A stretch of DNA of 63,752 nucleotides, filler included. It is 4 parts of 4 records of this genome, joined end to end, with 100 filler letters (N's around TTAATTAATTAA, not from the genome) between each part and the next. Parts side by side here need not be neighbours in the genome. Positions count along the whole stretch, not along the records: positions 50,404 to 63,752 come from SRR22947727_871; 3 more parts are not named here. One strand, 5' to 3'. Positions 19,847 through 62,864 of the stretch are shown one piece after another (position 1 is the first letter of the stretch; each line of letters begins with the position of its first letter). The position numbers and the translations under genes were made by a program. The notes beneath the pieces were generated by a model, which was given only the letters and a program-made list of their open reading frames with translations, made no database searches and was not told where the DNA came from.

Positions 19847-19946
19847 NNNNNNNNNNNNNNNNNNNNNNNNNNNNNNNNNNNNNNNNNNNNTTAATTAATT
19901 AANNNNNNNNNNNNNNNNNNNNNNNNNNNNNNNNNNNNNNNNNNNN
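19847..19946. other. Artificial contig linker
   Basis: 44 N + TTAATTAATTAA (stops in all frames) + 44 N. Confidence 0.99.
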
Positions 19947-26631: not shown

Positions 26632-26731
26632 NNNNNNNNNNNNNNNNNNNNNNNNNNNNNNNNNNNNNNNNNNNNTTAATTAATTAANNNNNNNNNNNNN
26701 NNNNNNNNNNNNNNNNNNNNNNNNNNNNNNN
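26632..26731. other. Artificial contig linker
   Basis: 44 N + TTAATTAATTAA + 44 N. Confidence 0.99.
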
Positions 26732-43973: not shown

Positions 43974-44336
43974 TTATTCGTCAAGATCACTGAATTCTGC
44001 GGCTCCCTCACGGAATTGCATGTATTCGAAAACTGCGCCGTCTTTCATAAAAAATGCCACCTGTAAGCCATCCATGGCCGTGAATGGTTCCATGATCACA
44101 TCTTCGCCTTCCAGCGCGGCATGAATATCCGCGTCGTCACCGTCCAATCGAAATGCGACGTGCGGCAGATCTCGAATCGGTCCCGTCACTGGTGAATCAG
44201 CCTCAAAACGGAGGAATTCGACTCGGTAAGGATGATTTTCGGGACGAGTCACCCACACTTTGGTTTCTTCGACATAGGATTCGCCCGGCTGTTTTTCATC
44301 GGTCGGCATACCGATGTGGTGAAAAGTTTTTGTCAT
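43974..44336 (-). CDS. VOC/glyoxalase-like small protein
   Basis: FHHIG...VEF...HVAF...VAFF...E metal-ligand pattern. Confidence 0.7.
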   Translation of the reverse strand: MTKTFHHIGMPTDEKQPGESYVEETKVWVTRPENHPYRVEFLRFEADSPVTGPIRDLPHVAFRLDGDDADIHAALEGEDVIMEPFTAMDGLQVAFFMKDGAVFEYMQFREGAAEFSDLDE

Positions 44337-44380
44337 CGCCGCAAGTTCACCGGAAAAAGCGACAACGGTCAAGATCCGCG

Positions 44381-44452
44381 TTTCACGAACCAACAGGGCA
44401 CGTTCGGCGAATCAATAGAGTACGTTCGACGAACCAACCCTGTTCATTCGTA
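44381..44452. repeat. 22-bp-unit repeat, locus 5 (3 units)
   Basis: gaaccaacagggcacgttcggc / gaatcaatagagtacgttcgac / gaaccaaccctgttcattcgta. Confidence 0.85.
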
Positions 44453-47326
44453 TTTAAAAATCGCGCTCGCCGTGGTGTCGGTGTCACTTATCGCACGAAC
44501 CCAATACGCGCTGAAACCTTCAGGGAATTCATAGGTGACGGATTCGCCAGCCTTAAGTGAAAACCCGTGAGCTGGAATCCACAAACCGGTTCCATCAATA
44601 TCGACTTCGAATGAAATTTTGGCGGCGACACTTGAACTCACCGTTACTGATTTTTTGTCGTAACCGGTCATCAAATACGGATCAGATGGCTCATCTGCTT
44701 TAACATCACTCTCGCTCCAGGGGCCGCCCGTTCCGCGAGGTTTTCCAAGTTTCCAAAGGTCATCAATCACTCCGGCCCAAACGGCGGCTTTGCCGTCTTC
44801 ACTGCGGAAAATCCGTTCACTTTTCGCTTCGGAATCAAGTCCGGTGAAAAAGATCAGGCCGTTGTGCGAACAGAAATCCTGCACGGCTAGATTATGGGTG
44901 GCGATCGGGCGGGCTTTGGCCAGCCCCTGCGCGTTTCGAGCGGGGAGTTCGTAAAATGTGCCGTGAACATTCAGCAAATCGCGTTCGGTGGCGACCTCGC
45001 GACAAATCCGAGCAATGCCAAAGTCCCGAGCGTTTGGAGGCGCGATTTCGACTGTTTTTTCAAAAGCCGCGATCTCATACATCCTGAGAAATCCGTGATC
45101 CTGAGATGCGAGACGAAGTTTTTTTGTAGTGACGGGGGTTTCAAATTCGATACTCCGCTCGATCGTTTTGTTGTCTCGAATTTCGCCGGGCGGTACGGTT
45201 TTCCAGCTGTCCCCCTCGGGGATTTGCACATCGAAATTTTTGGCAACGTATTGGATTTCGTTTTTCCATCCGGAGATCACCCACAAATTTTGGAATGTCG
45301 TTTCGCTTTTAAATTCGAATTCGATCCACGGTTTCGCTTCATTCGCAGAAATCCAGCGCCCTTCGTCGATGCGTTGTCCGTCGACTGCCTTCTCTGCAGA
45401 AAAATCGAGATGCGTTGAGCTGGCGGCGACGGTTGCATCGAGGAGGAGATTATCTGAAAAGTGACGGCTGATCGAATCGGACATTTTAGCAGCGGCGGCA
45501 GTTTCAGCTTTGTATGCATCATTTTTCGGCAATCGATAGCGTTTGCCGTCCTCGATCATCAGGACGGACGCGGCATCAACCGTGATCGTATTTTCCGGCT
45601 GACGAACGTCATTCACCAGATCGGAACTGGCTTTCAAATCATCAACTGGCACCAACTCGAGGGCTTCGTTGATTTCGTAAAAGCGGGTTTTATCTCCATC
45701 GGCAGCGACCAATCCAAGTCGATCATAGGCGAGACTTCGCATCATGCCGGATCTTGCAGCGGGTGTTTCCGCCGTCGCGATCCCTGCGAAAAAACCGGCG
45801 TTTTTCTCGTCGCGGGAATCGTGGTTTCGATACTGAAAGTTTGCGGTGATTCCTTCGACATCGCGATCCGTTTTCAACCGAATCCAAATTCCCGACTCGT
45901 CACCGAAAAGATGTGAAATCGCGTCGCCAGCCGGGATGGTGAGATCCCGCAACGGCTTCCACGTATTGTTTCCAACATGATCGATCTCCAGCGAGACGGT
46001 CACATTTTCAGCCGAATCATTTTTCAAGTGCAGCTGTCGGTGGTCGTAACCGCTGAAAAGATAGGGATCGCTCGGCTCGTCGGCTTTTACGGAATCACGA
46101 AGCCAAACGGAACCTCGACCAATTGCGGGGCCGAAATCATCGAGCTGATCGGGTGTCACAAACCAAAAATTCGAGTTCGATTGTTTCGGTGCCGCCTTCT
46201 CGGATTTAAACGGACGGGTGTTTAAGAATTCTGCTTTTGCAGAGTCATCGCAGCCAAAAACGATGTGGTCATTCCAGCGACAGAAATCGCCGATGACTTT
46301 CAGATAATTCGAATGAGGAGTTATTCCGGCAGAATTTTCTAATGAAAATGTAGCGGGGAATTTCCAAAACGTACCGTGCATCGTGGCGAGAAAATCGTCG
46401 CCTTCGCCGATCTCGCGAATGCGTGGCCATTCAGTATTCCAACCGTGAGCACCGTCGTAACTGTGGCTTCCTTTCGGAAGACGAAAGTAGTGCCACTTTT
46501 TCTTTTCGAGTAGCGCAAGGATCAACGAACGTGCGTCCCAACCCATTGCCCAAATCGGATCGGACTCTGGATTTTCATTGCCATAAATCCCGCCGGGGCC
46601 GGTCACTTCAGTAAACTGATTGCGCCTAATCAGTTGCCAGTCGCCCTCACCAAACCACTGACCAAGTGCGCCTGAAGGAACCGTCGGATCTGTTTTCACG
46701 GAGGCTCCCACTTCCCCGTTGTTCGCGTAAACGACTCTGCCCTGAGTGGAATAGAGGCCTTTTCCATGATAACCGGGAAATTCGCTGGAAACGCCGTCGC
46801 CCTCTTTGGTGTGGCCATCGCGAATGAGGCATTTTACAGCGAGCGTTTTCAAATCGACCTCGTAAAGCCCCTCTTCCATCGTGGCGTAGTAGACTTTGTT
46901 CCCAGGATTGGTGAGGTGCCGGGCATTCGCAGTAAGCCGCCCGAGCATATCCGCAGGTTGGATCACACGAATTTTTTTCGCGGCATCAATGAGATAGGGA
47001 CCGATCAACAATTGATTGGTTTCGCGGTGTATCATCCGATTGGCCGGCGTCCCACCAACGCTGCTTTCGAAAATGATTTTTTTAAGATCCGGAGTGATCT
47101 GATACAGCTTATCAGAAGACCCACGCGGCGAGTGCGGTGCGTAGGTGACGGCCCATAGATCGCCTTGCCATAGAACCAGAGCTCCTGATCCACACTCATT
47201 TTCCGAATTCCACATTCTAAGATGCGGATAGACTCCGGAGATCTCAACGGGCTCAGCCGCCGAGAGTTGGACGACGCCGCAAAAAAAGAGAATAGCGACG
47301 AGAAATGTTGCAAAAACGTTTTTCAT
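44444..47326 (-). CDS. Large secreted protein with an internal discoidin (F5/8 type C)-like domain
   Basis: Signal peptide MKNVF...LSAA; ATVAASS..AEKAVDG...RW...PWIEFEF...YEI segment; the rest is unrecognised and beta-rich. Confidence 0.75.
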   Translation of the reverse strand: MKNVFATFLVAILFFCGVVQLSAAEPVEISGVYPHLRMWNSENECGSGALVLWQGDLWAVTYAPHSPRGSSDKLYQITPDLKKIIFESSVGGTPANRMIHRETNQLLIGPYLIDAAKKIRVIQPADMLGRLTANARHLTNPGNKVYYATMEEGLYEVDLKTLAVKCLIRDGHTKEGDGVSSEFPGYHGKGLYSTQGRVVYANNGEVGASVKTDPTVPSGALGQWFGEGDWQLIRRNQFTEVTGPGGIYGNENPESDPIWAMGWDARSLILALLEKKKWHYFRLPKGSHSYDGAHGWNTEWPRIREIGEGDDFLATMHGTFWKFPATFSLENSAGITPHSNYLKVIGDFCRWNDHIVFGCDDSAKAEFLNTRPFKSEKAAPKQSNSNFWFVTPDQLDDFGPAIGRGSVWLRDSVKADEPSDPYLFSGYDHRQLHLKNDSAENVTVSLEIDHVGNNTWKPLRDLTIPAGDAISHLFGDESGIWIRLKTDRDVEGITANFQYRNHDSRDEKNAGFFAGIATAETPAARSGMMRSLAYDRLGLVAADGDKTRFYEINEALELVPVDDLKASSDLVNDVRQPENTITVDAASVLMIEDGKRYRLPKNDAYKAETAAAAKMSDSISRHFSDNLLLDATVAASSTHLDFSAEKAVDGQRIDEGRWISANEAKPWIEFEFKSETTFQNLWVISGWKNEIQYVAKNFDVQIPEGDSWKTVPPGEIRDNKTIERSIEFETPVTTKKLRLASQDHGFLRMYEIAAFEKTVEIAPPNARDFGIARICREVATERDLLNVHGTFYELPARNAQGLAKARPIATHNLAVQDFCSHNGLIFFTGLDSEAKSERIFRSEDGKAAVWAGVIDDLWKLGKPRGTGGPWSESDVKADEPSDPYLMTGYDKKSVTVSSSVAAKISFEVDIDGTGLWIPAHGFSLKAGESVTYEFPEGFSAYWVRAISDTDTTASAIFKYE

Positions 47327-47394
47327 AATGTGACACCTAAAGGAGTCAGGCTTCCAGAATTCTGGACACATTATTCAAACAAAAATCTCGGCAC

Positions 47395-47443
47395 TTTACG
47401 AATCAATTGAGTTGAATCGACAATCCAACAGGGATGGATTCTG
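47395..47443. repeat. Degenerate 22-bp-unit repeat, locus 6
   Basis: gaatcaattgagttgaatcgac / aatccaacagggatggattctg. Confidence 0.6.
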
Positions 47444-47475
47444 GATGATCACAGATTTTTTTTACCTTTTCTCAC

Positions 47476-50157
47476 TCAAGCAGCTTGCGTCATGGCCTGA
47501 TCGATGACGGCTCGAACCGCAGCGGTCATGTTTTCGATCTTGTAAGGTTTCTGAACAAATCCGTCGGGAACACTGCCTTCAGCAGACTGGAACGTGGACA
47601 AATCAACGAGGTAACCTGAGCAGATAAGAACCGGGACGTAATCGAACCGTTCGCGAATTTCAGTAAAGGTCTCGTCTCCTGATTTTTTCGGCATGGTCAT
47701 GTCGAGAAGGACAAGATCGATTTGCTGATCGCCCTTTTCGAAGATTTCGATGGCCTCTTCTCCATCTGAGGCGGTGATGATGTTGTAGCCCATTTTCGAC
47801 AGCAGTTTTTCAGCGACGGAACGAACGACCATCTCATCATCAACCAAAAGAAGGGTCTCGCCCTGGCCGCGACCGATGACGGCTTGTGTAGTTTTCACTT
47901 CGACACCTTGCTGAAGCTCCTTCGAGCGTGGGATATAGATGAAAAAGGTTGTGCCTTCGCCAATTTCACTCTCAAAATCGATCCACCCACCGAGTTGCTG
48001 AGCGATACCAAGGCAGGTAGCGAGTCCCAAGCCCGTTCCTTTGCCCTGCTCTTTCGTGGTGAAAAAGGGATCAAAAATCTGCTTTTGAATTTCTTTGGGA
48101 ATTCCTTCGCCGTTATCTTCGATAATGAGGCAGAGATAATCTCCGGCTCGAGAATCCGGGTGAACTTGCGCATCTTTTTCTGAAATCACGCAATTTTTGG
48201 TTGTGTACTTCAGATTTCCTCCATCCGGCATCGCATCAACAGCATTCACCGACATGTTCATGACAATTTGGCTCAGGAGGGCCGGGTCCGAAAGAACGTG
48301 CCATGCATTTACATCCAGATTACTGGCATCAACCGTGACTTTTGGATTAATCGTGCTGCTGATAAGGTCTTTGGTTTCTTCGACGATCTCGATCGCGTTG
48401 CATGGACAAAGGTCGATGTGGCTGCGACGGGAAAATCCGAGGAGTTTTTTCACAAGGCTGGTTGCCCGGCGGCTGGCGTGCATGGCCCGAATCAGTAACT
48501 CCTTCTTATCTTCGTGATTTTCACCAAGGTCTTCCATTTCGAGCAGTGAAAGGTGCCCGTATATTCCGGTGAGCAAGTTGTTGAAATCGTGAGCAACGCC
48601 ACCGGCAAGAGTGCCGAGCGCTTCGAGTTTCTGAGACTGACGGAGATTCTCTTCAAGAACACGTTTTTCGGTAAGGTCCCGAAGCACCCAGAGACGGCCG
48701 CTGGTTTCGCCAAGGCTGTCTGTAATCGGGGTGGTAAAGAGCGCTGCTACGCAATAATTGTCCCCGGCGCCGGTTTTGATCAGGTTTACCTCACGCTCGA
48801 AAATTGAGTTCGGTTTTAACATTGCCCCGAGAAATTCACGAGCGTCTTTCTTTTTCTTAATCTTGCCGATCAAGTGGTCGCGAAGCTCAGTCTCACTCAG
48901 TTCAGAATGATCCAGATTAGGAAGGTCAAGCAAACTGGAAAAAACACAGTTGCCCATGATAACGTATCCATTGGAATCGGTCACCAGTATCCCATCTTTT
49001 GATTCATTAAACGCGGCACGAAGGCGAGCCGTGGTATGCTTCAAATTCTGCTCGGACTTCTCCAGGTTCTTAGTACGTTTGGCGACGAGAAATTCCAGTT
49101 TTTCGTTGTGGCCTTTGATTTTCGAGACCATAAGATTAAAAGACTCAGCAAGCTCCCTTCCCTCCAGGAATCCGTTCGCTTCAACGGTAACATCCAAATC
49201 ACCACTGGCGACAAGACGAGCGCTCTCGTTCAAGCTACCGACATCCTTGGTGATGATCGATGTGACGACAAGGCCGATGAGCGTGGCAAATACAAAAGTC
49301 ATCGCCAAGGCGAAAAGCAATGCGATCTGAGATGTTGAAACGAGCTGCTTTACAGAAGAAAGAGGTTCTAAAACAAGCAACGCAAGTTCCGAATTCCCAA
49401 CGCTGAAATGCTTCACTGAGTATAGGTTTTCGACTCCGTCCGATGAAGTATGAACCCCACTTGACTTGTCTTTCAAGGCAGCCAGTGTCATTCCGGGGAA
49501 ATAGGCTGACTCACTGTACGGATCGTTGCCTGAAGAAATCAACATTCGGCCACCTTGATCCAAGAGAACAAATTTTCCATTCTTTTCACCGAGAGAGCTT
49601 TCATTGATCAGTTTACGAATTCTTCCAAAGTCGTGTCGCGCGACAATTACGTTCTCTACTTCAGATTTCTTGTTGAACAGAGGGATATAAATTGAGAAAA
49701 CCAGCTCCTCATTCCCAAAGATCACAGTTGGCAAGGATATCGTAGTCTCCCCCTCTAGAGCAGCCTCAAACCATGTCGTTTCGTCTTTCATCTTGGGAAG
49801 GTCTTTCGTCGTCGATTCGATCAAATACCCTGAATCACGATAAAGACTGATATCAATAAAGGATTCATTGGCACGCTGAAGCCTCCCCAACTCCCCCATC
49901 CGCGCTCCAATCTCGGCATCCAGATCTGAAACAATCGGATTTGTTTCGAGTGACTTCAAGCGGGATGCCATCCCTTCCATGAGCAGTTGGAGATGACTTA
50001 CCATCTGACCATTAATATTGATGATTCGATCTTGCTCAGAATTGCGGATCGTATTTCCCATGAAACCATTCGTGCATAAAAAGAGGGCAACGAGTGGAAG
50101 CAGACCCGTGAAAATCACGGCTACAAGGATCTGCCGTCTGAGTGAAAGTGCCTTCAT
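47476..50157 (-). CDS. Hybrid sensor histidine kinase (Cache-HAMP-PAS-HisKA-HATPase-REC)
   Basis: Two TMs; AGGVAHDFNNLL H-box, NAVDAM, DNGEGI, FDPFFTTK and GTGLGL; receiver LLVDDE...DMTMP...KP. Confidence 0.95.
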   Translation of the reverse strand: MKALSLRRQILVAVIFTGLLPLVALFLCTNGFMGNTIRNSEQDRIININGQMVSHLQLLMEGMASRLKSLETNPIVSDLDAEIGARMGELGRLQRANESFIDISLYRDSGYLIESTTKDLPKMKDETTWFEAALEGETTISLPTVIFGNEELVFSIYIPLFNKKSEVENVIVARHDFGRIRKLINESSLGEKNGKFVLLDQGGRMLISSGNDPYSESAYFPGMTLAALKDKSSGVHTSSDGVENLYSVKHFSVGNSELALLVLEPLSSVKQLVSTSQIALLFALAMTFVFATLIGLVVTSIITKDVGSLNESARLVASGDLDVTVEANGFLEGRELAESFNLMVSKIKGHNEKLEFLVAKRTKNLEKSEQNLKHTTARLRAAFNESKDGILVTDSNGYVIMGNCVFSSLLDLPNLDHSELSETELRDHLIGKIKKKKDAREFLGAMLKPNSIFEREVNLIKTGAGDNYCVAALFTTPITDSLGETSGRLWVLRDLTEKRVLEENLRQSQKLEALGTLAGGVAHDFNNLLTGIYGHLSLLEMEDLGENHEDKKELLIRAMHASRRATSLVKKLLGFSRRSHIDLCPCNAIEIVEETKDLISSTINPKVTVDASNLDVNAWHVLSDPALLSQIVMNMSVNAVDAMPDGGNLKYTTKNCVISEKDAQVHPDSRAGDYLCLIIEDNGEGIPKEIQKQIFDPFFTTKEQGKGTGLGLATCLGIAQQLGGWIDFESEIGEGTTFFIYIPRSKELQQGVEVKTTQAVIGRGQGETLLLVDDEMVVRSVAEKLLSKMGYNIITASDGEEAIEIFEKGDQQIDLVLLDMTMPKKSGDETFTEIRERFDYVPVLICSGYLVDLSTFQSAEGSVPDGFVQKPYKIENMTAAVRAVIDQAMTQAA

Positions 50158-50303
50158 CGGGATACGGGGAATCTAAGCTGACCGGCTTTACCCCCTTGTA
50201 AGGCGACAACGCAGAACGCTACAATCAGTGACGTTAATGTTTTTATATTTATTTTCATATCTTGGGGGGGGAAATATAATTAGAAGATAATATTCAACAT
50301 TAC

Positions 50304-50403
50304 NNNNNNNNNNNNNNNNNNNNNNNNNNNNNNNNNNNNNNNNNNNNTTAATTAATTAANNNNNNNNNNNNNNNNNNNNNNNNNNNNNNNNNNNNNNNNN
50401 NNN
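50304..50403. other. Artificial contig linker
   Basis: 44 N + TTAATTAATTAA + 44 N. Confidence 0.99.
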
Positions 50404-50477
50404 GAAATTAGATAAAACGAGATCGCTAAAATAAGGGTGTCAGCTAGGGACATTGCAGCCGATAATTACACTATTAC

Positions 50478-50672
50478 TTATTGCCTACCTGTCAGCTCAT
50501 CCCAGCTAATCGGTTCACCAGCCACTAACTGCCGACCGCGAGTGTGCATTGCTTGTAGGTCGGTTTCACTGTATTTAGACCACCAATCAGGAAGCCTGCA
50601 GCGTTGCCGTTCTCCCGGAAGAAGAGCGTCATCTTCAACAACAGGCTTTCGCTGCCTTCGCTTAGCTGGCAT
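50478..50672 (-). CDS. Small hypothetical protein
   Basis: ATG 14 bp after the sigma factor stop, co-oriented, 64 aa. Confidence 0.55.
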   Translation of the reverse strand: MPAKRRQRKPVVEDDALLPGERQRCRLPDWWSKYSETDLQAMHTRGRQLVAGEPISWDELTGRQ

Positions 50673-53810: not shown

Positions 53811-53965
53811 GATCGTGTCCTGCACGAATTGATAACTTAATTTTAGCGATTTTGGCTTTTGATTTTATTGGAATCGGCCCCGTCTCGATCTCATTCATCG
53901 TCGGACCAAACCCCCCTTTTAGTCCGACGTCACAGTCGTTACGCTAGGAATCGGCTCTGGTTTGG

Positions 53966-54182
53966 TCGTGGCATTTGCCACGAGCAGCAGCCAGCGGGTG
54001 CAGAAAGCTTGCTGCGGCAGTCGGTCTTGGGTGGAGCCACAACACTTTCAACTGCTGAAAATGTTGTGGTCCTGGGGTGGAGTCACAGCATTGGTACCTG
54101 AGTACCCATCTTGTGTGATCTTGGGTGGAGCCACAGCATTACAACCGGGTTGTATTGGTGTGGACACAGCAGCCAGCCAGCG
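53966..54182. repeat. Three ~47-bp-spaced TCYTGGG(G)TGGAGYCACARCA repeats plus CAGCCAGC boxes
   Basis: Copies at 54025, 54070 and 54119; degenerate copy near 54155. Confidence 0.8.
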
Positions 54183-54280
54183 TGCAAGGGCAGACCAAAG
54201 GATGAGGATAAATCGGCAGACTCATGCGGATTAAATGACGACAGGTCGAACATTTCGCCAACCTTGGGGTGCTCACCGCT

Positions 54281-54310
54281 TTTCAAAGCACCTGGATCGG
54301 TGCTTTGAAA
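54281..54310. other. Perfect 12-bp hairpin bordering the 51-bp array
   Basis: TTTCAAAGCACC-TGGATC-GGTGCTTTGAAA. Confidence 0.75.
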
Positions 54311-54324
54311 GTCAACGCCGCGTG

Positions 54325-54582
54325 AATTAGGCACATTTTTGTCCGAGATTTCATCAGCAGACTTTCGTCCTTCGGAAAGGACGACATTTTTGTCGTCTAT
54401 TTCCTCAACAGGCTTTCGCCCTGGGCGAGCCTGCTGTATCCGCTCAGCGCCTACCGTTGCAACATTTTTGTTATCACGGTCCTGCTTGTTCTGCTCAACG
54501 CTTGAATCCATAGCATTTTTGCTATGGATTTCATCAGCAGACTTTCGCCCTTCTAGCTTTGGGACATTTTTGTCCCAGATTT
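54325..54582. repeat. 51-bp-period array: five CA-TTTT-TG hairpins with variable arms and a conserved 26-bp linker
   Basis: TTTT loops at 54336, 54387, 54465, 54516 and 54567; linker ATTTCATCAGCAGACTTTCGYCCTTC at 54348 and 54528, variant at 54399. Confidence 0.85.
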
Positions 54583-54655
54583 GTTGAGGTCAGTGCGGGT
54601 GCCCCAATCTCAAAAGGTGTCAGCCAGCAACGTGACACAGCAGCCAGCCAGCGGG

Positions 54656-55669
54656 TTAATTCACCGCTAATGCCAGCTGACCTGCAATCGGTTCACTTTC
54701 AATCTCTGAACGCCTCAGCAATACAACCTCTGTTCGTTCTGATCCATCTGCCCGCTTGCTCACACCAATAGAACTGAACGCCTCACGCTTGACCCATAAC
54801 CATCGGTTCTTTGGATACAGCGCACGCAGCTCGGGACAGTCGTAATACATGACCACCACACCAGAAGCAGGGACGCACTCCAACAGCTCTGCAAGCGCCT
54901 CATGCTGATTGAATCCACCTTCGGCATAGGCGTGCTCAGTGCCGAAATAAGGCGGATCTACAACAACCAAATCATTGGTTCTGCCTGTGCATTCCTTGCG
55001 GATCAACTCCAACGCATCGATGTTCATCACGGTGGGACCAACGAATGCCCTGCAAAGGGTTGGCAGGTGCTGAATCAATCGATCCCACTTCCTTGATTTG
55101 TTGCCGCTGCGATCAACTGCAAAACGGTTCTGCTTGAAGTTGCCAACGAAACCGTGATAGTTGCGAGCCAGCCACCACACAGCAACATCGGCATCAGACC
55201 ACTGATGATCAGGCTCAACGGTGTGATCAAACTCGGCAGCAGCAATGGGCATCAATGCCAAGCGTCGTTGAAGCTCTTTCGGGTCATTGCGTAAGGCTCT
55301 GAGCGTGGCAACCATCCAGCCATTGAGATCATTTAGGACCGCTTGATGTGGGCTGAGAAGGTCAGCCTTCAATGCTTCTAGATACAGGGCACCAGAACCC
55401 AGGAAGGGTTCAATCCAACGATCAAAGGTGATGCAGTTGTCAGTGATCACCTTGAGCACTTCAGGTCCGCTGATCGCACCCTTGCTTCCAATCAATGGGT
55501 GAACACCAGAGAGGCGTGATTGCTTCAGCGCCTGCCCAATGGTGAGGTCATCAGCAGCACGTTTGCGGTGGCGATGACTCTTGAGCTTGCAATAGTCGGA
55601 GCAGTATCGGGCAGAACGTCGTTGAGCTTGAAAGGACTTGCCGCAGACTTGGCAGCTGATCTCAGGCAT
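54656..55669 (-). CDS. DNA adenine methyltransferase (Dam/D12 class) with an N-terminal zinc finger
   Basis: CQVCGKSF...RYCSDYC; IGSK, IEPFLGSG, LNDLN and VDPPY motifs. Confidence 0.88.
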   Translation of the reverse strand: MPEISCQVCGKSFQAQRRSARYCSDYCKLKSHRHRKRAADDLTIGQALKQSRLSGVHPLIGSKGAISGPEVLKVITDNCITFDRWIEPFLGSGALYLEALKADLLSPHQAVLNDLNGWMVATLRALRNDPKELQRRLALMPIAAAEFDHTVEPDHQWSDADVAVWWLARNYHGFVGNFKQNRFAVDRSGNKSRKWDRLIQHLPTLCRAFVGPTVMNIDALELIRKECTGRTNDLVVVDPPYFGTEHAYAEGGFNQHEALAELLECVPASGVVVMYYDCPELRALYPKNRWLWVKREAFSSIGVSKRADGSERTEVVLLRRSEIESEPIAGQLALAVN

Positions 55670-57040: not shown

Positions 57041-59218
57041 TCAACCATTGCTCCTATAGGAGAAATAAAACTCTCTTCCGACCTTCTTTTGGGTCAGAAG
57101 ACCTTCTCTTGCGCAAGCTCGAAGTTGTTTTCTTGTTCCTTCTATTTCCGAATCAGTGGGCTCACGTTCAAGATTTTGAACCTTGCACGCTGCAACCTGG
57201 CGAACAGTTACGCCATGCGGACCCTTCCAAACCCCTGCAGCAGAACCAACCCATTCGAGCGTTTCTCGTTGCCCAGTAGTAAGTCCTCCGATCACTTCAT
57301 CGTTGCCGTCCGTGCTTTGTAATTCAGCAAGAGATTGTTCAAACTTGCCAATTACATTCCAGGTGCCAGCTTCACCGTCAAAACCAACCAAGAGATCTTG
57401 GTAAGGCATCCGACCTTCAACGACGACGCGACGATATGGCGTTTCTTTATCCGCTACCCATTTATTGGTTCGTGGATCCTTCTTCTCAATGAAGTGGATG
57501 CTGATACCACCTGATGGAACACCTTTGGCTGAACCGTGACCACGAATTGCCTCCATGCCTAACTTGTCGCGATCTTGCGGTGAGTGGAAGGCACAAATAT
57601 GAGCACGTGTTTTATCAGCGCAATAGGTTTGGATGTCAATCAATGCACCACCTGCTTCAGGCTCTTGATCTGAACCATGAACAGGGCGAACGTTGGCGTA
57701 GAAGCTGTCAGAGATCAGGATTGCGCCAGGGTGTTTGGTGGTGATTTCAATGAGTTCATCCATTCCTTCGTCATCCCAACAGAGGTTGTCCTCTGCGGTG
57801 TAAAGCTTGACGATCTGAGGGTGAAGTCGTCCGTCAGCATCCATCAGCCCACGGGCTTTCAGATACTGCGCTGAATTAACTCCAGGCTGATCAGTCCACC
57901 ACAGAATGAACTTATGCTTTTCAGGTGATGGCATCCATTCGGGATTACCCATGAACGGATGCTGAAAGATCAATGATGAGACCAATTCAGTGAGACATTT
58001 GGTCTTACCAACCTTCACGAAGGCAGCAATTGAAGTCAGACAATCAGCCGAGATCAGATTGTTGATCAACCAAACCTGTACGGCGAAGGAAGCAACCTGA
58101 CCACCTGAAACGCCCTTCTCTTCAGTCTTCTTCAGAAGTGATCGCTGCTTTTGAATTAGGCGGCTGCGAACCTGTATCGGAGAAACGCGCAGATTTAATT
58201 CAGCTGCACTGGTGGCAGCACGGATCTGCCTTCTGATCGTGTTGCGCTCAAAGTTTGGATGATTTGGATCAACCAGATTCTTCAGCACTTCATCCCAATC
58301 GTCTAAAGGGGAGCCGCCCTCCGCTCCGCCTGATGGCTCCGCTTTGGGCTCTTTGTACCCACCAGCCTTTGCCCATTCATGCAGGGAGCCAATGCTTAGC
58401 CCACCTTCTTTGGGCTTAAAGCTGAGCCATTTCTTCAGGCACTCATCATCAGATTTGAAGTTGTCCATTTGCCTGGACCATTCAGTCCAGGCATCAAGCA
58501 ATCCTTCATCGGTGTGATGCAGGGCAATTCCAACCCGCAACCAACAGCGGTAGTTCTGATTCTTAGCAGGATCGATGCACTTGAGCATTTCCACTGCACG
58601 AGCGGCATCCTCACTGGTGGGTTCAACAGGCTTCGATTCTGTTTTCCTGGTGATGACCTCAAGCAACCATTCAGGTGCTTCTGAAACTTGCAGGAGATCA
58701 GGGCTGCGACCCTGGAGGAATTTGTATCCAGCAGTTTCAGGATGAGCGCCAATGACGGCACAGTAATGATCACTGAACCGTGCTTCAAGCAGATCAATTC
58801 CGTTCTCACCCCAAACCTTGCGATTTGGCATCTCCTCCCAATAATCCATGGGAACGATGAAAGCGAGCGCCGCACGACCGGGCTTGCCGCTAGTCCAACC
58901 CACCGTGATCGGAAGATCAGATACATCAAACCCGGTAGTGGATTTGAAGCAGCGTTTTGATGAATCTGGATCGTCTTTTAACGCATCAAAATCCAATATC
59001 AGCAGCCCACCGGAGGCAACACCGCATTTGACGCCAACAGCGTGAGTATCCCCATTCATGGAAGGGAAATCTTCTCGCCCCCATGAACGTGCTTTCCATG
59101 CGATACGCATTTCAGTACCGCTGACCTTCATCGGTCCCTTGTCATCAGACAAAGGGATCAGCTCCCAATCTTCAGGAAGCTGTTCAACCTGCTGCAGGTG
59201 AAAAGGAGAAAGGCTCAT
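57041..59218 (-). CDS. Prim-Pol + PriCT-2 + RecA-like (AAA_25-type) helicase replication protein
   Basis: WELIPL, AVGVKCG.ASGGLLILDFD, GAHPET..Y, APEWL; YRCWLRVGIALH...WTEWS...KKWLSF...SIGSLHEWAK; KVGKT Walker A; ILISDS Walker B; IRGHGS; C-terminal wHTH. Confidence 0.88.
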   Translation of the reverse strand: MSLSPFHLQQVEQLPEDWELIPLSDDKGPMKVSGTEMRIAWKARSWGREDFPSMNGDTHAVGVKCGVASGGLLILDFDALKDDPDSSKRCFKSTTGFDVSDLPITVGWTSGKPGRAALAFIVPMDYWEEMPNRKVWGENGIDLLEARFSDHYCAVIGAHPETAGYKFLQGRSPDLLQVSEAPEWLLEVITRKTESKPVEPTSEDAARAVEMLKCIDPAKNQNYRCWLRVGIALHHTDEGLLDAWTEWSRQMDNFKSDDECLKKWLSFKPKEGGLSIGSLHEWAKAGGYKEPKAEPSGGAEGGSPLDDWDEVLKNLVDPNHPNFERNTIRRQIRAATSAAELNLRVSPIQVRSRLIQKQRSLLKKTEEKGVSGGQVASFAVQVWLINNLISADCLTSIAAFVKVGKTKCLTELVSSLIFQHPFMGNPEWMPSPEKHKFILWWTDQPGVNSAQYLKARGLMDADGRLHPQIVKLYTAEDNLCWDDEGMDELIEITTKHPGAILISDSFYANVRPVHGSDQEPEAGGALIDIQTYCADKTRAHICAFHSPQDRDKLGMEAIRGHGSAKGVPSGGISIHFIEKKDPRTNKWVADKETPYRRVVVEGRMPYQDLLVGFDGEAGTWNVIGKFEQSLAELQSTDGNDEVIGGLTTGQRETLEWVGSAAGVWKGPHGVTVRQVAACKVQNLEREPTDSEIEGTRKQLRACAREGLLTQKKVGREFYFSYRSNG

Positions 59219-59535
59219 TCGCTTAACTCCTCTTGAAGGGCTTGAACGAGAGCTTCATCACCAACGAGCAGGCGATCAACTAGCAGCGATGCAAAGCGCG
59301 GTGCTGTTGGGTATCTCGTGATGATCAGATCGATTAATAGCGCCGTTGCAGTGGTTATTTCTCCTACTGAGGCGTATCGTTCGGTCGCATCAAGAAAATG
59401 CCTGGTTAAAGCAAGTCTGCGAATCTGGGTTTTACGAATTTGGGCTTGGTCGAGTGCCGCAAGACTCGGCGAGAATTGTTGTTGCCGCGCTGCTTCAGGT
59501 GTCTTGAAAGCAGGTTGGTGGTTTTTGCGATCCAT
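59215..59535 (-). CDS. Hypothetical protein
   Basis: ATGA-coupled to the primase gene. Confidence 0.65.
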   Translation of the reverse strand: MDRKNHQPAFKTPEAARQQQFSPSLAALDQAQIRKTQIRRLALTRHFLDATERYASVGEITTATALLIDLIITRYPTAPRFASLLVDRLLVGDEALVQALQEELSE

Positions 59536-59551
59536 TAGAATTGATTTAGGG

Positions 59552-59583
59552 AAAAAGGGCGGTCTCCGGACCGTCTTTTTTTT
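59552..59583. terminator. Intrinsic terminator hairpin upstream of the replication operon
   Basis: AAAAAGGGCGGTC-TCCG-GACCGTCTTTTTTTT. Confidence 0.7.
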
Positions 59584-59659
59584 GTGGAAATCCCTGAACC
59601 CGATTGATCTCTGCCGGAGCAGTTGGTCGCTTGATCAAGCAGAAACAGGGACTTAAGCC

Positions 59660-59851
59660 CTAGATGGCTAGAGCGTCTTCAAGGAGTCCTTCGCTTTCAA
59701 GTCCCTTGCGGAAATAGTGCCGCTGGGCTGCAGACATGGAGTCGAATTCACCGTTTAGGACTTCAAGCCTGAGGAAGTGAATCTCCCGGTCTGAGAGCAT
59801 CAAAGAGATTCTTTGATTGATGGGATCTCGAAGGGGTCTAGATCTTTTCAA
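59660..59851 (-). CDS. Small putative DNA-binding regulator (ribbon-helix-helix-like)
   Basis: QRISLMLSDRE...SMSAAQRHYFRKGL beta-helix-helix pattern; lies between integrase and primase. Confidence 0.55.
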   Translation of the reverse strand: MKRSRPLRDPINQRISLMLSDREIHFLRLEVLNGEFDSMSAAQRHYFRKGLESEGLLEDALAI

Positions 59852-60018
59852 GGGGTGGATGTTCGATAAGTCCTACCTCCGTCTAGCGGTGAATAGGGGG
59901 TACCTGGTCTTTTTTGGTCGAAATTGGCTGATATCCAGCAGATGCAATCCGTATACGCCCGTTGATGGATTGCGTTTCCAATCAGCGCACGTAAGGTGAA
60001 AATCGTGATCAACCCCTT

Positions 60019-60237
60019 ATGAACCTCGACGCCAGCTGCCGTGAATTAGATGAAATCGCGCAGCTACTGGTTGAAGAGCACCGTCTGATCAGGCTCATGA
60101 GAAGCCATGGAGAGCCGCCCTCAGCTGTCGATGAGGCACGGGCTTACAGCGGTGGGATTAGCCAAGTGGCGTTGATGATGCAGCCTCTTTTGCTCGCTGC
60201 GCTGGATCTGGAATTGGAAGGTGCCTGCGTGGCTTGA
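60019..60237 (+). CDS. Small hypothetical protein (divergent)
   Basis: 72-aa ATG ORF, divergent from the RHH-like gene. Confidence 0.5.
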   Translation: MNLDASCRELDEIAQLLVEEHRLIRLMRSHGEPPSAVDEARAYSGGISQVALMMQPLLLAALDLELEGACVA

Positions 60238-60242
60238 TTCAC

Positions 60243-60423
60243 GGGCTCTAAAAGAGCCCAGTGTTTTTGTAGAGAAATAGCGGGCTCGACTTGAGCCCAC
60301 GAAAAGTGGGCGGGCGCCCACCTCTGAGCACAGGTGTGCTCGGGGCTTAGGGGAACAGCTGTTCCCTTTTCGCAATGTTGCGCAAAGTGGGCACGTGCCC
60401 ACCTGAGGGGAGCCGTGGCTCCC
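60243..60423. repeat. Cluster of eight short palindromes (seven of 16-17 bp, one of 12 bp)
   Basis: Starts at 60243, 60282, 60306, 60326, 60351, 60371, 60387 and 60408. Confidence 0.85.
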
Positions 60424-60426
60424 TTT

Positions 60427-62214
60427 TCAGGCTCGCTTGGGGCTTAGGTCAATCAATCCAGCCTCATCTGATTTGATGCCCAGGGCTTCAAACAGCGGGG
60501 TCATATCAGCCACTCCGTCCACAGACGGCAGCAGCTGCATCAGTTGTTTGATCGACTCAGCATCAAGCTCGAAATTCACATCCTTAGCATTGACCATCAG
60601 GCTGCGAAGCGCTGCAGCATCAAGCCTCGGGTTCAACGGTTGCCAATCAATCTCACCGTCTCCAATGCTCATGCCAACCCTCTGATGCTCCCTATCAAGA
60701 CTGACCTTTAACCCGGCACGACGCATCAAATCATTGATGGCTTGCCGTTGCTTCGGGGTGTCCTCCTCGTTGGCAAAAGCTAGGAACAGCTCTTTCAATG
60801 CAGCTTGGAATTCCTTTGAATCCACCTCATGCCGCAGACCAGCTAACCGCTGCTGTGCTGTTGTAACCGCTGTTTTCTTGGCCTCCACCTCATCGCGAGC
60901 TTCATTCACTGCCTCTTGAAATAACGGATCGATCATTCCTGTTTTCAACGACTGCTTGAAGACACGGCTTGAATTTTCAAGTTCCTGTTCAGCCAACGCC
61001 AACTGACCTTGGAGCTTCGCGATTGCCTGCTCTTCACGCTTGATCCGAGCATCACGCCCCGTGCCGGCGAGTAGCTGTTGAAGCTGACCCTGCTGCAGGC
61101 GTGCAAGCAGATGTCCGTTTAAGTGATCGAGCCTGTACCCCTTAGCCCCGCACTTGGCGCTGCATCGGGAATAACGGAGCCGCAATGGCTTTCCATCTGG
61201 TCCTTTTCTCGTACCGCTGTAGGTGATGCCCAAGGTGGCGGTGGCACCGCATCCACATCGGGTCAATGTCTGAGCGATATTCCACGTCTGCCCTTTGATG
61301 CCAGAACCGGCGCCATCAGAAGTTCTGCTAGCGCGAGCTGCCAGCACCCCATCAACTTCATCTTTGGGGAGCACTAACGGCAGCAGATCAGGAAACAACG
61401 TTTCCTCTAGCCCCTCATCGATCCGGCGCTGTAATTCCTTCTGGGTGAGATCTTCTCTGCCGTACAAGCGCACAGCACCCCAAACCCGGGGGTCTTTCAA
61501 CAGACGGCGCACCTTGCTACGGGTCCAGGGTCTGGTGTCAGCCAGACCTGGAACTCCTTCTTCATTGAGACGGCTGGCAACGATCTGAGCACCATCGGAT
61601 TGCGCTAACTCAAACACCTTGCGGACGATCGCTGCACGATCAGGATCTAAGACCACCCGATCGCCATCAAAATTGCACCAAGGCGGCATGAACACGCCAA
61701 CGCGATTCAGCTTGTTTTGCGCAAGGTCAGCTGCTGATTGCTTCCATGCAGCGGTGATCCGTTTCGATAAGCGCTTGGAATATTGATGAGCGGCTTCTGC
61801 TTTCAAAGCCAGCATCACGAGCTTGGTGCCGTCTTCCCGAATTGCAGCGCGTGAAAATTCCTGCCCGTCTTCAAGGCTGACGATCGTGACCCCAGCGCGG
61901 ACCAGACCGAGCAGAACATCAGGAAGGCTGTCTAGTGCCTCTTGCCTGCTAAGCCTGTCGATTGCTTCGACTAGCAGGATCGGATCACCACCAAGATTTC
62001 CTGCCTGAGCCATCGCCAAGAATTTGCCGAGGGCACCCTTTGCCACGTTGTCGCCCTTGAAGGCTGATATACCTGCATCGCTCAAGCCGTCATCAATCTG
62101 CAAACCACGAGCTGCACACCAAGAATCTGCAGCGGTTGCTTGACGCTCTAAACCACGACCTTGCTCTACCTGCAAGGCTGAAGAAACACGCTCGTAGCTG
62201 AAGACTCGTGGCAT
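60427..62214 (-). CDS. Large serine recombinase (integrase)
   Basis: YERVSS catalytic Ser, LERQ, DAGISAF, VEAIDRLSR; recombinase domain; CGCG...CSAKC Zn ribbon; coiled coil. Confidence 0.95.
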   Translation of the reverse strand: MPRVFSYERVSSALQVEQGRGLERQATAADSWCAARGLQIDDGLSDAGISAFKGDNVAKGALGKFLAMAQAGNLGGDPILLVEAIDRLSRQEALDSLPDVLLGLVRAGVTIVSLEDGQEFSRAAIREDGTKLVMLALKAEAAHQYSKRLSKRITAAWKQSAADLAQNKLNRVGVFMPPWCNFDGDRVVLDPDRAAIVRKVFELAQSDGAQIVASRLNEEGVPGLADTRPWTRSKVRRLLKDPRVWGAVRLYGREDLTQKELQRRIDEGLEETLFPDLLPLVLPKDEVDGVLAARASRTSDGAGSGIKGQTWNIAQTLTRCGCGATATLGITYSGTRKGPDGKPLRLRYSRCSAKCGAKGYRLDHLNGHLLARLQQGQLQQLLAGTGRDARIKREEQAIAKLQGQLALAEQELENSSRVFKQSLKTGMIDPLFQEAVNEARDEVEAKKTAVTTAQQRLAGLRHEVDSKEFQAALKELFLAFANEEDTPKQRQAINDLMRRAGLKVSLDREHQRVGMSIGDGEIDWQPLNPRLDAAALRSLMVNAKDVNFELDAESIKQLMQLLPSVDGVADMTPLFEALGIKSDEAGLIDLSPKRA

Positions 62215-62864
62215 GCGCACAGGATGACGTAAAACGACCTACTTGCGCAAGAGGGACTGCACCTGTAATCTGCATCACTGGCCCTTCCGCGGTTGGGAAA
62301 ACCAGCTTCACCCTGGCCCTGGCACAAGCACTGGGCACTATTGGGCTTGAAGTGCTCGTGATCTGCTGCGATGACTACTACAGGCACCACTGGCGCCCTC
62401 ACCCACGCTTTGGATTCGACACAGCGGCAGCTATCGACATCGACGCGTTGCGCGCTGAGCTTGATGAGGTCAAGCACCACGCTGCAAGCAGCTTGCGCAC
62501 CTACGACATGGGCACGCGTGATGTAGCGCGCAAACCGCTGAACCAGAGCTACCAGCTTGTCTTGCTCGAAGGAGCCTATGGACCGCAAGAGCTGCTCGAC
62601 GATGGCTCGATCACAGCACTGTTTTATCTCGAAGCACCCTTGCTGCTGCGCATGATTCGACGGCTACGACGAGATCAACAAGAGCGCGGTCGTCATCCAA
62701 TTCAGATCATCCAACACATGCTGATGCACATGATTCCTGGTGAATGGAGTTTTATCCGCCCACTGCGATCGGTCTCGGGGCTTGTCATCACCAACCCACG
62801 CCAGGGACAAGTGGCTGCGATTGCGCTCATCCAGGCCCTGATGACTGAATCATCAGCAAGGTGA
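62208..62864 (+). CDS. udk: Uridine kinase family protein (start codon uncertain or displaced)
   Basis: ICITGPSAVGKTS, DDYYR, FD..AAID, LLEG and RRLRRD..ERG motifs; the only in-frame start is GTG 62208, overlapping the integrase start. Confidence 0.8.
   Translation: MACAQDDVKRPTCARGTAPVICITGPSAVGKTSFTLALAQALGTIGLEVLVICCDDYYRHHWRPHPRFGFDTAAAIDIDALRAELDEVKHHAASSLRTYDMGTRDVARKPLNQSYQLVLLEGAYGPQELLDDGSITALFYLEAPLLLRMIRRLRRDQQERGRHPIQIIQHMLMHMIPGEWSFIRPLRSVSGLVITNPRQGQVAAIALIQALMTESSAR

Follow-up and report, generated by a model that had tools for sequence, protein, structure and literature searches.

The 63,752-nt stretch of DNA analysed here (the window) holds eight perfect palindromes packed within 181 bp (60243-60423), and the question raised by this locus is what such an array does. 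The window consists of four contigs joined by N44-TTAATTAATTAA-N44 linkers at 19847-19946, 26632-26731 and 50304-50403, and the array lies in the last contig (50404-63752), which carries an integrative element of the tycheposon kind. There it fills the 189-bp gap between two convergent genes, the small open reading frame (ORF) ORF72 on the + strand (60019..60237) and a large serine recombinase (LSR) gene on the - strand (60427..62220). An earlier sequence-only reading took the palindromes for binding sites in double-stranded DNA rather than terminators, arranged as a diversified library through which a satellite could sense the regulators of helper phages. Our analysis leads to a different answer. 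With a probability of about one half, the array is predicted to be a stack of double-hairpin intrinsic terminators or 3′-end stabilisers acting on both strands, because its hairpins follow stop codons in all three elements that carry them, T- and A-runs are conserved and the stems pair strictly by Watson-Crick rules. The two other hairpin-bearing elements come from a Cyanobiaceae genome (G404) and a Synechococcus single-cell genome (G062/L003), and the closest relative of the window element is carried by a metagenome contig (L004).

All eight palindromes are present with the sequences and positions first described, and 133 of the 181 bases lie inside hairpins. Hairpins were counted when perfect, with a stem of at least 6 and a spacer of at most 6, and a stricter set was defined by a stem of at least 7 and a centre of at most 3. 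Dinucleotide-preserving shuffles of 60243-60423 contained 0.38 hairpins on average and 5 at most, and none of 5000 reached the observed 8, so that the shuffle check proposed with the sequence-only reading supports a non-random density. With the stricter set, 6 were observed against a shuffle mean of 0.06, and again none of 5000 shuffles reached this number. Over the entire window 142 hairpins were found; the array is the densest site, and the best other 200-nt bin has 4. RNA folding gave z scores of -6.5 on the + strand and -6.8 on the - strand, with none of 200 shuffles folding as well. The array starts 5 nt past the stop codon of ORF72 (H1) and its last hairpin (H8) ends 3 nt short of the stop codon of the 597-aa recombinase, which confirms its placing behind the integrase gene.

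The individual hairpins, H1 to H8, differ in geometry and in their flanks. H1 (60243..60259) is 7-3-7 with the stem GGGCTCT and an RNA free energy of -10.7 kcal/mol, and is followed on the + strand, after 4 nt, by TTTTT (60264-60268). H2 (60282..60298; 6-5-6, stem GGGCTC, -10.3 kcal/mol) is a direct copy of H1, 79% identical and 39 nt downstream (direct-repeat family D1). In a consensus terminator scan H1 is terminator-like on the + strand and H2 on the - strand (60300..60280). A ninth, bridging inverted repeat (60295..60311, GCCCAC / GTGGGC) would allow an alternative pairing of the 3′ arm of H2 with the 5′ arm of H3. Module A (60300..60376) then runs through an A-run, H3, CTCT, H4, a linker, H5 and a T-run, and its flanks form a 7-nt inverted repeat, CGAAAAG / CTTTTCG. 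H3 (60306..60321) is a 16-nt 7-2-7 unit with the stem GTGGGC and the centre GG; the AAAA before it becomes UUUU after the stem on the - strand, where the scan also finds it terminator-like. H4 (60326..60341), likewise a 16-nt 7-2-7 unit with centre GG, has the stem GAGCAC and a T-run on neither strand; G404 has two units of this stem class, and G062 a variant in which one pair has changed on both sides. H5 (60351..60366) is a 16-nt perfect palindrome, 8-0-8, with the stem GGGAAC and TTTTC after it on the + strand. H6 (60371..60382, CGCAA TG TTGCG) is a weak 5-2-5 hairpin of only -2.8 kcal/mol, and in G404 its sequence is partly kept (CAATGTTGCG) while its pairing is not.

Module B (60383..60429) reads AAAG, H7, CTGAG, H8, TTTTCA, and its final three bases, read on the - strand, give the recombinase stop codon. 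H7 (60387..60402), with the stem GTGGGC, is again a 16-nt perfect palindrome of 8-0-8 and has UUUG after it on the - strand; an identical unit is found in G404. H8 (60408..60423) is a 16-nt 7-2-7 unit with the stem GGGAGC and the centre GT, followed by TTTTC on the + strand. This module is the best-conserved double hairpin, with 29 consecutive bases identical to G404 as read from the alignment, and blast gave 83% identity over 53 nt (E 2.8e-7). A 7-2-7 geometry common to five palindromes, as originally described, therefore applies to H3, H4 and H8, whereas H5 and H7 are 8-0-8 because their centres (GC and CG) are themselves complementary.

Comparison of units among elements shows how the array is built. 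We tabulated the 13 units of exactly 16 nt, five from the window, seven from G404 and one from G062; H1, H2, H6, the bridging repeats, one decayed and three 5-bp hairpins of G404 and two other hairpins of G062 were left out. The stems of the 13 units belong to five classes (GGGAGC, GGGAAC, GAGCAC, GTGGGC and GAGCTC) with the common pattern G-N-G-N-N-C, which the GGGCTC of H1 and H2 also follows. G1, G3 and C6 are invariant throughout, and positions 2, 4, 5 and 7 each occur with three pair types. Pairs 1 to 7 are Watson-Crick in every unit, with no G-T pair among 91, which fits a requirement that both strands fold; the central pair is complementary in 6 of the 13. The earlier remark that symmetry runs non-randomly up to a two-base centre was thus correct, given that even the seventh pair, in its three types, is always Watson-Crick.

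The sequences between the units are as regular as the units. AAA(A) precedes the GTGGGC-type units and the first GGGAGC unit of G404, CTGAG or CTCTGAG comes after GTGGGC units, GGGAGC and GGGAAC units mostly stand after (C)TGAG or TTAG and before TTTTC, and GAGCAC units are flanked by CT and (C)GGG. The linkers AAAG, CTGAG and CCCTTTTC are kept between the window and G404, and in this comparison linkers and T-runs are better conserved than stems. The array is built of double-hairpin cassettes that present the same layout on either strand, namely A-run, hairpin, CTGAG, hairpin and T-run.

Changes within stems were examined by aligning 60300-60432 of the window with the matching part of G404, which includes five of its seven units; G062 was excluded. 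Among 35 stem pairs, seven differed in both partners and none in a single partner, so that pairing is 100%, and three of the seven changes are at the seventh pair. This result was equalled in only 2 of 500 shuffles, and slid controls reached 0-1. Compensated-only change of this kind points to intra-strand pairing as the property being kept, and replacement of units by paralogues, instead of mutation in place, may account for it. In both cases palindromy has been kept while linkers remained constant. The description of the array as a diversified library of sites is accordingly not supported, as there are few stem classes, these recur in G404, and the variable positions covary. In a metagenome variant, nine letters inserted at the centre of H7 produce a perfect 12-1-12 palindrome in place of the 8-0-8. 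We also considered a cloverleaf, given the four-way junction into which 60299-60377 folds on the + strand (z -4.7); G404 has neither the closing stem nor H5, and the idea was dropped.

As RNA, the 16-nt units would form a 6-bp stem with a 4-nt loop, and seven of the eight hairpins (H1-H5, H7 and H8) reach -8.0 to -10.8 kcal/mol on both strands. Six of the eight have at least three U within 6 nt past the stem on exactly one strand, the + strand for H1, H5 and H8 and the - strand for H2, H3 and H7. These two properties speak against the argument that two-base centres make the palindromes something other than terminators. The consensus scan, with a rule of 5 T in 8 nt over the range 59500-60700, returned 6 terminator-like sites against 1.5 ± 1.2 in shuffles, and the array contributes H1(+), H2(-) and H3(-) to them. 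No promoter-like site was found in this range, hence the array is not a regulatory promoter region. A search of the window against Rfam at gathering score was empty, and a relaxed search of 59500-60700 (E<=10) placed nothing in the array, which leaves no Rfam family as a candidate.

If the array acts as stacked terminators or stabilisers, transcription from either direction would turn each cassette into two stable stem-loops, the second of which would then be followed by UUU(U). For the recombinase mRNA, read from the - strand, H8 and then H7-UUUG would act, with H3-UUUU and H2 as backup, and H7 is probably the first effective stop for this transcript. For the ORF72 transcript on the + strand, H1-U5 would act, backed up by H5-UUUU and H8-UUUU. 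The array could in this way keep two convergent transcription units from colliding. Both the stopping of RNA polymerase at the array and the stabilisation of mRNA by its hairpins are inferred from the sequence. Slippage or recombination between similar units would change unit number. An added process at the DNA level may keep the units palindromic up to the centre and allow symmetric growth; replicative template switching inside quasi-palindromes would be a candidate.

Several observations weigh against the terminator reading and explain why we hold it at about even odds. The scan rule picks out only three of the eight hairpins; the six with U past the stem have 3-5 of them in the following 6-10 nt on one strand, H5, H7 and H8 have 3-4 T, and H4 and H6 are without a T-run. 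The same element also has a textbook terminator of another design, with a longer stem and T8 (~59549-59585). In L004, beside the same flanking gene, the recombinase gene and a convergent ORF72 homologue are separated by a gap of only 18 bp with no array, and in G404 the neighbours of the array are on the same strand, hence the two-way design is not needed there. Moreover, the seventh pair is Watson-Crick in 13 of 13 units across six distinct loop sequences, yet RNA hairpins could not form this pair, which would leave them a loop of 2 nt. The variant with nine letters inserted at the centre of H7 stays a perfect palindrome all the same. Symmetry up to the 2-bp centre and symmetric growth are not accounted for by RNA function alone, and this is why a DNA-level component was added to the reading.

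The distribution of the array among relatives bears on all explanations. Blast of the array against 401 Cyanobiaceae genomes gave one real match, G404 (74% over 107 nt, E 3e-13; 83% over 53 nt). At E<=1 a further 223 genomes had short matches at about the chance rate, and 19 inspected loci of these weak matches were mostly coding sequence or single hairpins. In the genus of G062 one of 46 genomes matched, again G404, and in a search of 201 genomes centred on G404 only the array of G404 itself was found. No hairpin stack was seen at the recombinase 3′ end in 21 Cyanobiaceae loci, where the maximum was 5 per 200 nt, elsewhere in the loci. Around 18 primase relatives (331 kb) there was no comparable stack either; bins with 5-6 hairpins reflected palindromes that overlap within GC-rich coding sequence, or else an A/T run. 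Over 435 kb of G404, no place outside the array exceeded 4 hairpins per 200 nt, and the array is therefore unlike the ordinary hairpins of its host.

In G404, the element is ~9 kb and adjoins a tRNA-Pro gene. It has in common with the window element only the helicase (420 residues, 68% aa identity) and, within a small ORF, a 38-aa stretch. Its array lies between a 60-aa HTH_23 ORF and a terminase large-subunit-like ORF (PHROG phrog_2, 6.2e-23), and the flanks are not homologous to those in the window. G062 has three hairpins past the recombinase stop codon, including one 7-2-7 unit that equals H4 with one compensated double change, and beside this unit a decayed copy of H8. The homologous hairpins in G404 and G062 likewise start just past a stop codon, and in two of the three elements (window and G062) they adjoin a recombinase gene.

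Metagenome variants were taken from Logan contigs of four marine or estuarine runs. One contig joins 60225 to 60324 with 8 other letters between them and a 105-nt side (run X3), another joins 60371 to 60438 with 12 letters between, and in both whole units are skipped. Two further joints (60236 to 60349 and 60298 to 60349) are weak, with 23-nt sides and 80% likeness. A metagenome search at the protein level, with the spurious 93-aa ORF that spans the array as query, returned no candidate. From relatives and metagenomes together, the array is real but rare, lineage-bound and unstable in unit number. The turnover of units across related integrases and elements that had been proposed as a check is thus visible, with none in L004, decay in G062 and skipped units in metagenomes.

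Among other explanations, neutral or selfish palindromic repeat DNA of the REP/BIME or organelle-hairpin type, spread by slippage and recombination with only incidental terminator activity, accounts easily for this instability, that is, for the absence of the array in L004, the decayed units in G062 and the metagenome contigs without whole units. It would also suit a unit family that occurs in non-homologous gene contexts in the window and G404, a palindromy perfect to the centre with one variant grown symmetrically, and a breakpoint in the recombinase 3′ end suggesting that the tail and the array came as one block. Against this explanation, no dispersed copies turned up when the remainder of the 13.3-kb contig, 435 kb of G404 and the 331 kb surrounding 18 primase loci were examined, and a REP family in the proper sense was rejected; array-like matches were confined to 1/401 genomes of the family, 1/46 of the genus and the own array of G404 in the 201-genome search. 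Pfam and PHROG scans of element ORFs showed no REP-type transposase nearby, and linkers and T-runs outlast the stems, suggesting constraint. We consider this explanation rather unlikely. The same helicase type links the window, G062 (73-77% aa identity) and G404 (67-68%), the only elements in which array-type hairpins were found, while L004, with the closest recombinase and a 42%-identical primase, is without the array. This raises the idea of a cis-acting replication site for the primase-helicase of the element, with single-strand hairpins for priming or helicase loading as in plasmid single-strand initiation signals; equally good hairpins on both strands would suit priming in both directions. 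Co-occurrence can, however, be plain common descent, G217 has a 62%-identical helicase and no array, the distance and side relative to the helicase gene vary between elements, and the iteron region at 53940-54660 is far more origin-like. We give a replication site only a small chance. The position of the G404 copy directly upstream of a terminase large-subunit-like gene would fit a packaging signal (pac/cos-like), a very improbable identity in view of the array missing in L004, the lack of anything similar in phage collections (INPHARED and IMG/VR) and the absence of a detected terminase or capsid gene in the window element.

Binding of dimeric proteins to 16-bp dyads, as a diversified library for regulators of helper phages or of the element, would account for the constant geometry of 13 units of exactly 16 bp, for symmetry to a 2-bp centre without G-T pairs and for the position beside a recombinase gene in two of three elements; the invariant G1, G3 and C6 would be possible contact points. 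Yet the non-conserved positions 2, 4, 5 and 7 change symmetrically only, which is unexpected if a protein reads the conserved positions alone, and the five stem classes are not a single repeated half-site that drifts asymmetrically. Several different proteins would be required for a true library, and no ParB-like protein was seen among the element ORFs in Pfam and PHROG scans. Of the candidate binders, both ORF72 and the RHH-like ORF63 (59660-59851), named earlier as a partner for binding experiments, have homologues in L004 despite its lack of an array and none in the array-bearing G404; the array-bearing elements have in common only the helicase and the 38-aa stretch. The proposed regulators of helper phages gained no support from virus collections either. 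INPHARED held no array-like sequence (blastn with 7.3 kb and with the array alone), nor did PLSDB, and three pattern scans of IMG/VR (two 15-16-nt strings and one degenerate motif) returned 12, 9 and 4 stretches, at chance level and without arrays. Three IMG/VR matches had three GC-rich hairpins; one is in a group I intron, and the other two are near-identical to each other. IMG/VR also held no relative of the recombinase. We regard protein binding sites as improbable, and on present evidence the array reveals no new satellite-helper sensing system. A DNA-level alternative of another kind would be a new type of palindromic cassette, restricted to one picocyanobacterial tycheposon-like lineage, with 16-bp dyads kept symmetric and grown from the centre, read by the primase-helicase or the serine recombinase and marking the places where elements exchange modules for integration, replication and packaging, with termination as a by-product. 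This alternative appears unlikely.

Among known systems, the array is best seen as most like tandem or bidirectional intrinsic terminators with an unusual perfect palindromy, as judged from sequence features. It shares with them GC-rich stem-loops right past stop codons, in part an A-run before and a T-run after, and several units in series. It differs in having two different hairpins per cassette, U-runs of 3-5, palindromy that includes the outer loop bases, and eight units in 181 bp, and its termination is inferred. In lambda sib/tI, a single hairpin directly 3′ of int terminates transcription and controls the stability of int mRNA, is processed by RNase III and spans the attachment site. 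A hairpin 3′ of an integrase gene is common to both; the array, however, is internal to the integrated element, has many units and in G404 is found away from any integrase. The attachment site of a serine integrase is an imperfect dyad of ~40-50 bp around a central dinucleotide. The array was rejected as such a site, having units of 16 bp and lying inside the integrated element, and it is the 5′ end of the recombinase gene, not the array, that faces the flanking PRK-like gene. A CRISPR array was rejected as well, since its units are not identical repeats and conserved linkers of 2-22 nt separate them.

REPs form one sequence family of hundreds of dispersed copies with a conserved tag and a dedicated transposase. 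The REP/BIME elements of E. coli resemble the array as extragenic palindrome clusters at 3′ ends, often between convergent genes and variable among strains, whereas the array has several stem classes and no dispersed copies in the ~920 kb examined. According to a 2026 preprint, E. coli REP clusters act as dual terminator and mRNA stabiliser (10.64898/2026.03.23.713779). A study of T4-type phages describes PeSL (promoter-early stem-loop) cassettes as short regulatory cassettes with terminator stem-loops, found at module junctions in otherwise unrelated neighbourhoods, that drive modular shuffling (PMC2839356). One array cassette family is similarly found at two gene junctions and beside a recombination breakpoint. 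The array, however, has stacked hairpins and lies in a cyanobacterial integrative element rather than a T4-type phage, and a PeSL cassette would require a strong sigma-70-like promoter, of which the array has no counterpart (0 promoter-like sites in 59500-60700). Mitochondrial repetitive or double-hairpin elements are reported to be short GC-rich units, sometimes paired, that invade intergenic spacers and vary between relatives (PMC2800124). They are dispersed through organelle genomes, while the array units are confined to one spot per element. The sequence-only reading knew of no description of such arrays in picocyanobacterial satellites, and none was found in the accessible part of the tycheposon preprint or in a full-text search on marine Synechococcus palindromes and stem-loops.

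To our knowledge, cyanobacteria lack Rho, and we know of few terminator parts for them. If the array does consist of two-way terminators or stabilisers, it would be a compact natural set of short ones from marine Synechococcus elements and useful as parts. In addition, the array offers a view of how regulatory hairpins evolve in the form of exchangeable cassettes, whose stems change in compensated pairs and whose units are gained and lost in wild populations. Symmetry up to the 2-bp centre, together with symmetric unit growth, makes it a small and testable case for the origin and upkeep of perfect palindromes in bacterial mobile DNA.

The gene setting is that of a compact integrative element. 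A primase-helicase with PriCT_2 and AAA_25 domains (57041-59218) is encoded on the - strand, and ORF106 and the RHH-like ORF63 lie on the same strand between it and ORF72. ORF72, which converges on the recombinase gene, encodes a conserved small protein with no assigned family; it has no Pfam or PHROG match, and its homologue in L004, in the same convergent position, is 49% identical (E 2e-19). The terminator of other design mentioned above is a canonical bidirectional one with A-run, hairpin and T8, located between ORF63 and the ORF106-primase operon, and is unlike the array units. The recombinase (stop codon 60427-60429; Pfam Resolvase 2.3e-15, Recombinase 7.4e-9) has relatives that are 78% identical in L004 and 55% identical in G062, and the 5′ end of its gene abuts the flanking PRK-like gene. 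Its last ~60 residues (60427-60610) are unrelated to L004 and G062, which resemble each other there, and this suggests a recombination breakpoint inside the recombinase 3′ end, beside the array. A 27-nt match of this tail (60455-60481, 96% identical) to the genome G001 is within an unrelated ORF there and was taken as chance. According to the tycheposon preprint, a large serine recombinase is used by 27 of 937 such elements. Pfam and PHROG scans detected no capsid or terminase gene among the ORFs of the window element, which leaves its supposed status as a satellite without support, and ARAGORN found no tRNA or tmRNA genes.

Further observations concern other parts of the window. The region 53940-54660 is non-coding and contains direct repeats, among them three ~21-nt copies 46-48 nt apart, three 55-nt units each with a hairpin having an ATTTTTG-type loop, and an exact 20-mer repeated 471 nt apart. 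It had been counted as a first binding-site library in the same element; its repeats are direct and iteron-like and thus of a different kind from the palindromes. This region is likely a candidate replication origin or regulatory hub, and it is not common to G404, G062 or L004. Next to it, a 337-aa ORF on the - strand (54656-55669) has a short N-terminal match to an HNH-endonuclease PHROG and a D12-class N6-adenine DNA methyltransferase domain. The intron-borne hairpins among the IMG/VR matches are in a 101-kb contig (L081, GC 41%), where positions 1133-1635 are a group I intron (RF00028, 68 bits) whose three hairpins are superficially array-like.

The contigs of the window differ in origin. 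Contig 3, in the part tested (44000-50303), matches G001:C17 at 100% identity; G001 is a 6-Mb genome. At ~44380-44453 contig 3 contains a sequence of 45-70 nt with more than 40 similar copies (77-95% identity) across G001 contigs, a dispersed short repeat of the 6-Mb organism. The last contig (50404-63752) is not present in G001, and its relatives belong to marine Synechococcus; in G062 the primase region has 75% DNA identity and the flanking PRK-like and UPF0102 genes 71%. The contig is probably foreign to this assembly, a product of mis-binning. Its first 57 nt (50404-50460) are 96-100% identical to two places in contig 8 of G062 and similar to two more contigs, and the ~190 nt at 50420-50606 match another G062 contig at 89%. 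The region 50404-50606 has no Rfam match and may be a small conserved Synechococcus repeat or an unannotated RNA.

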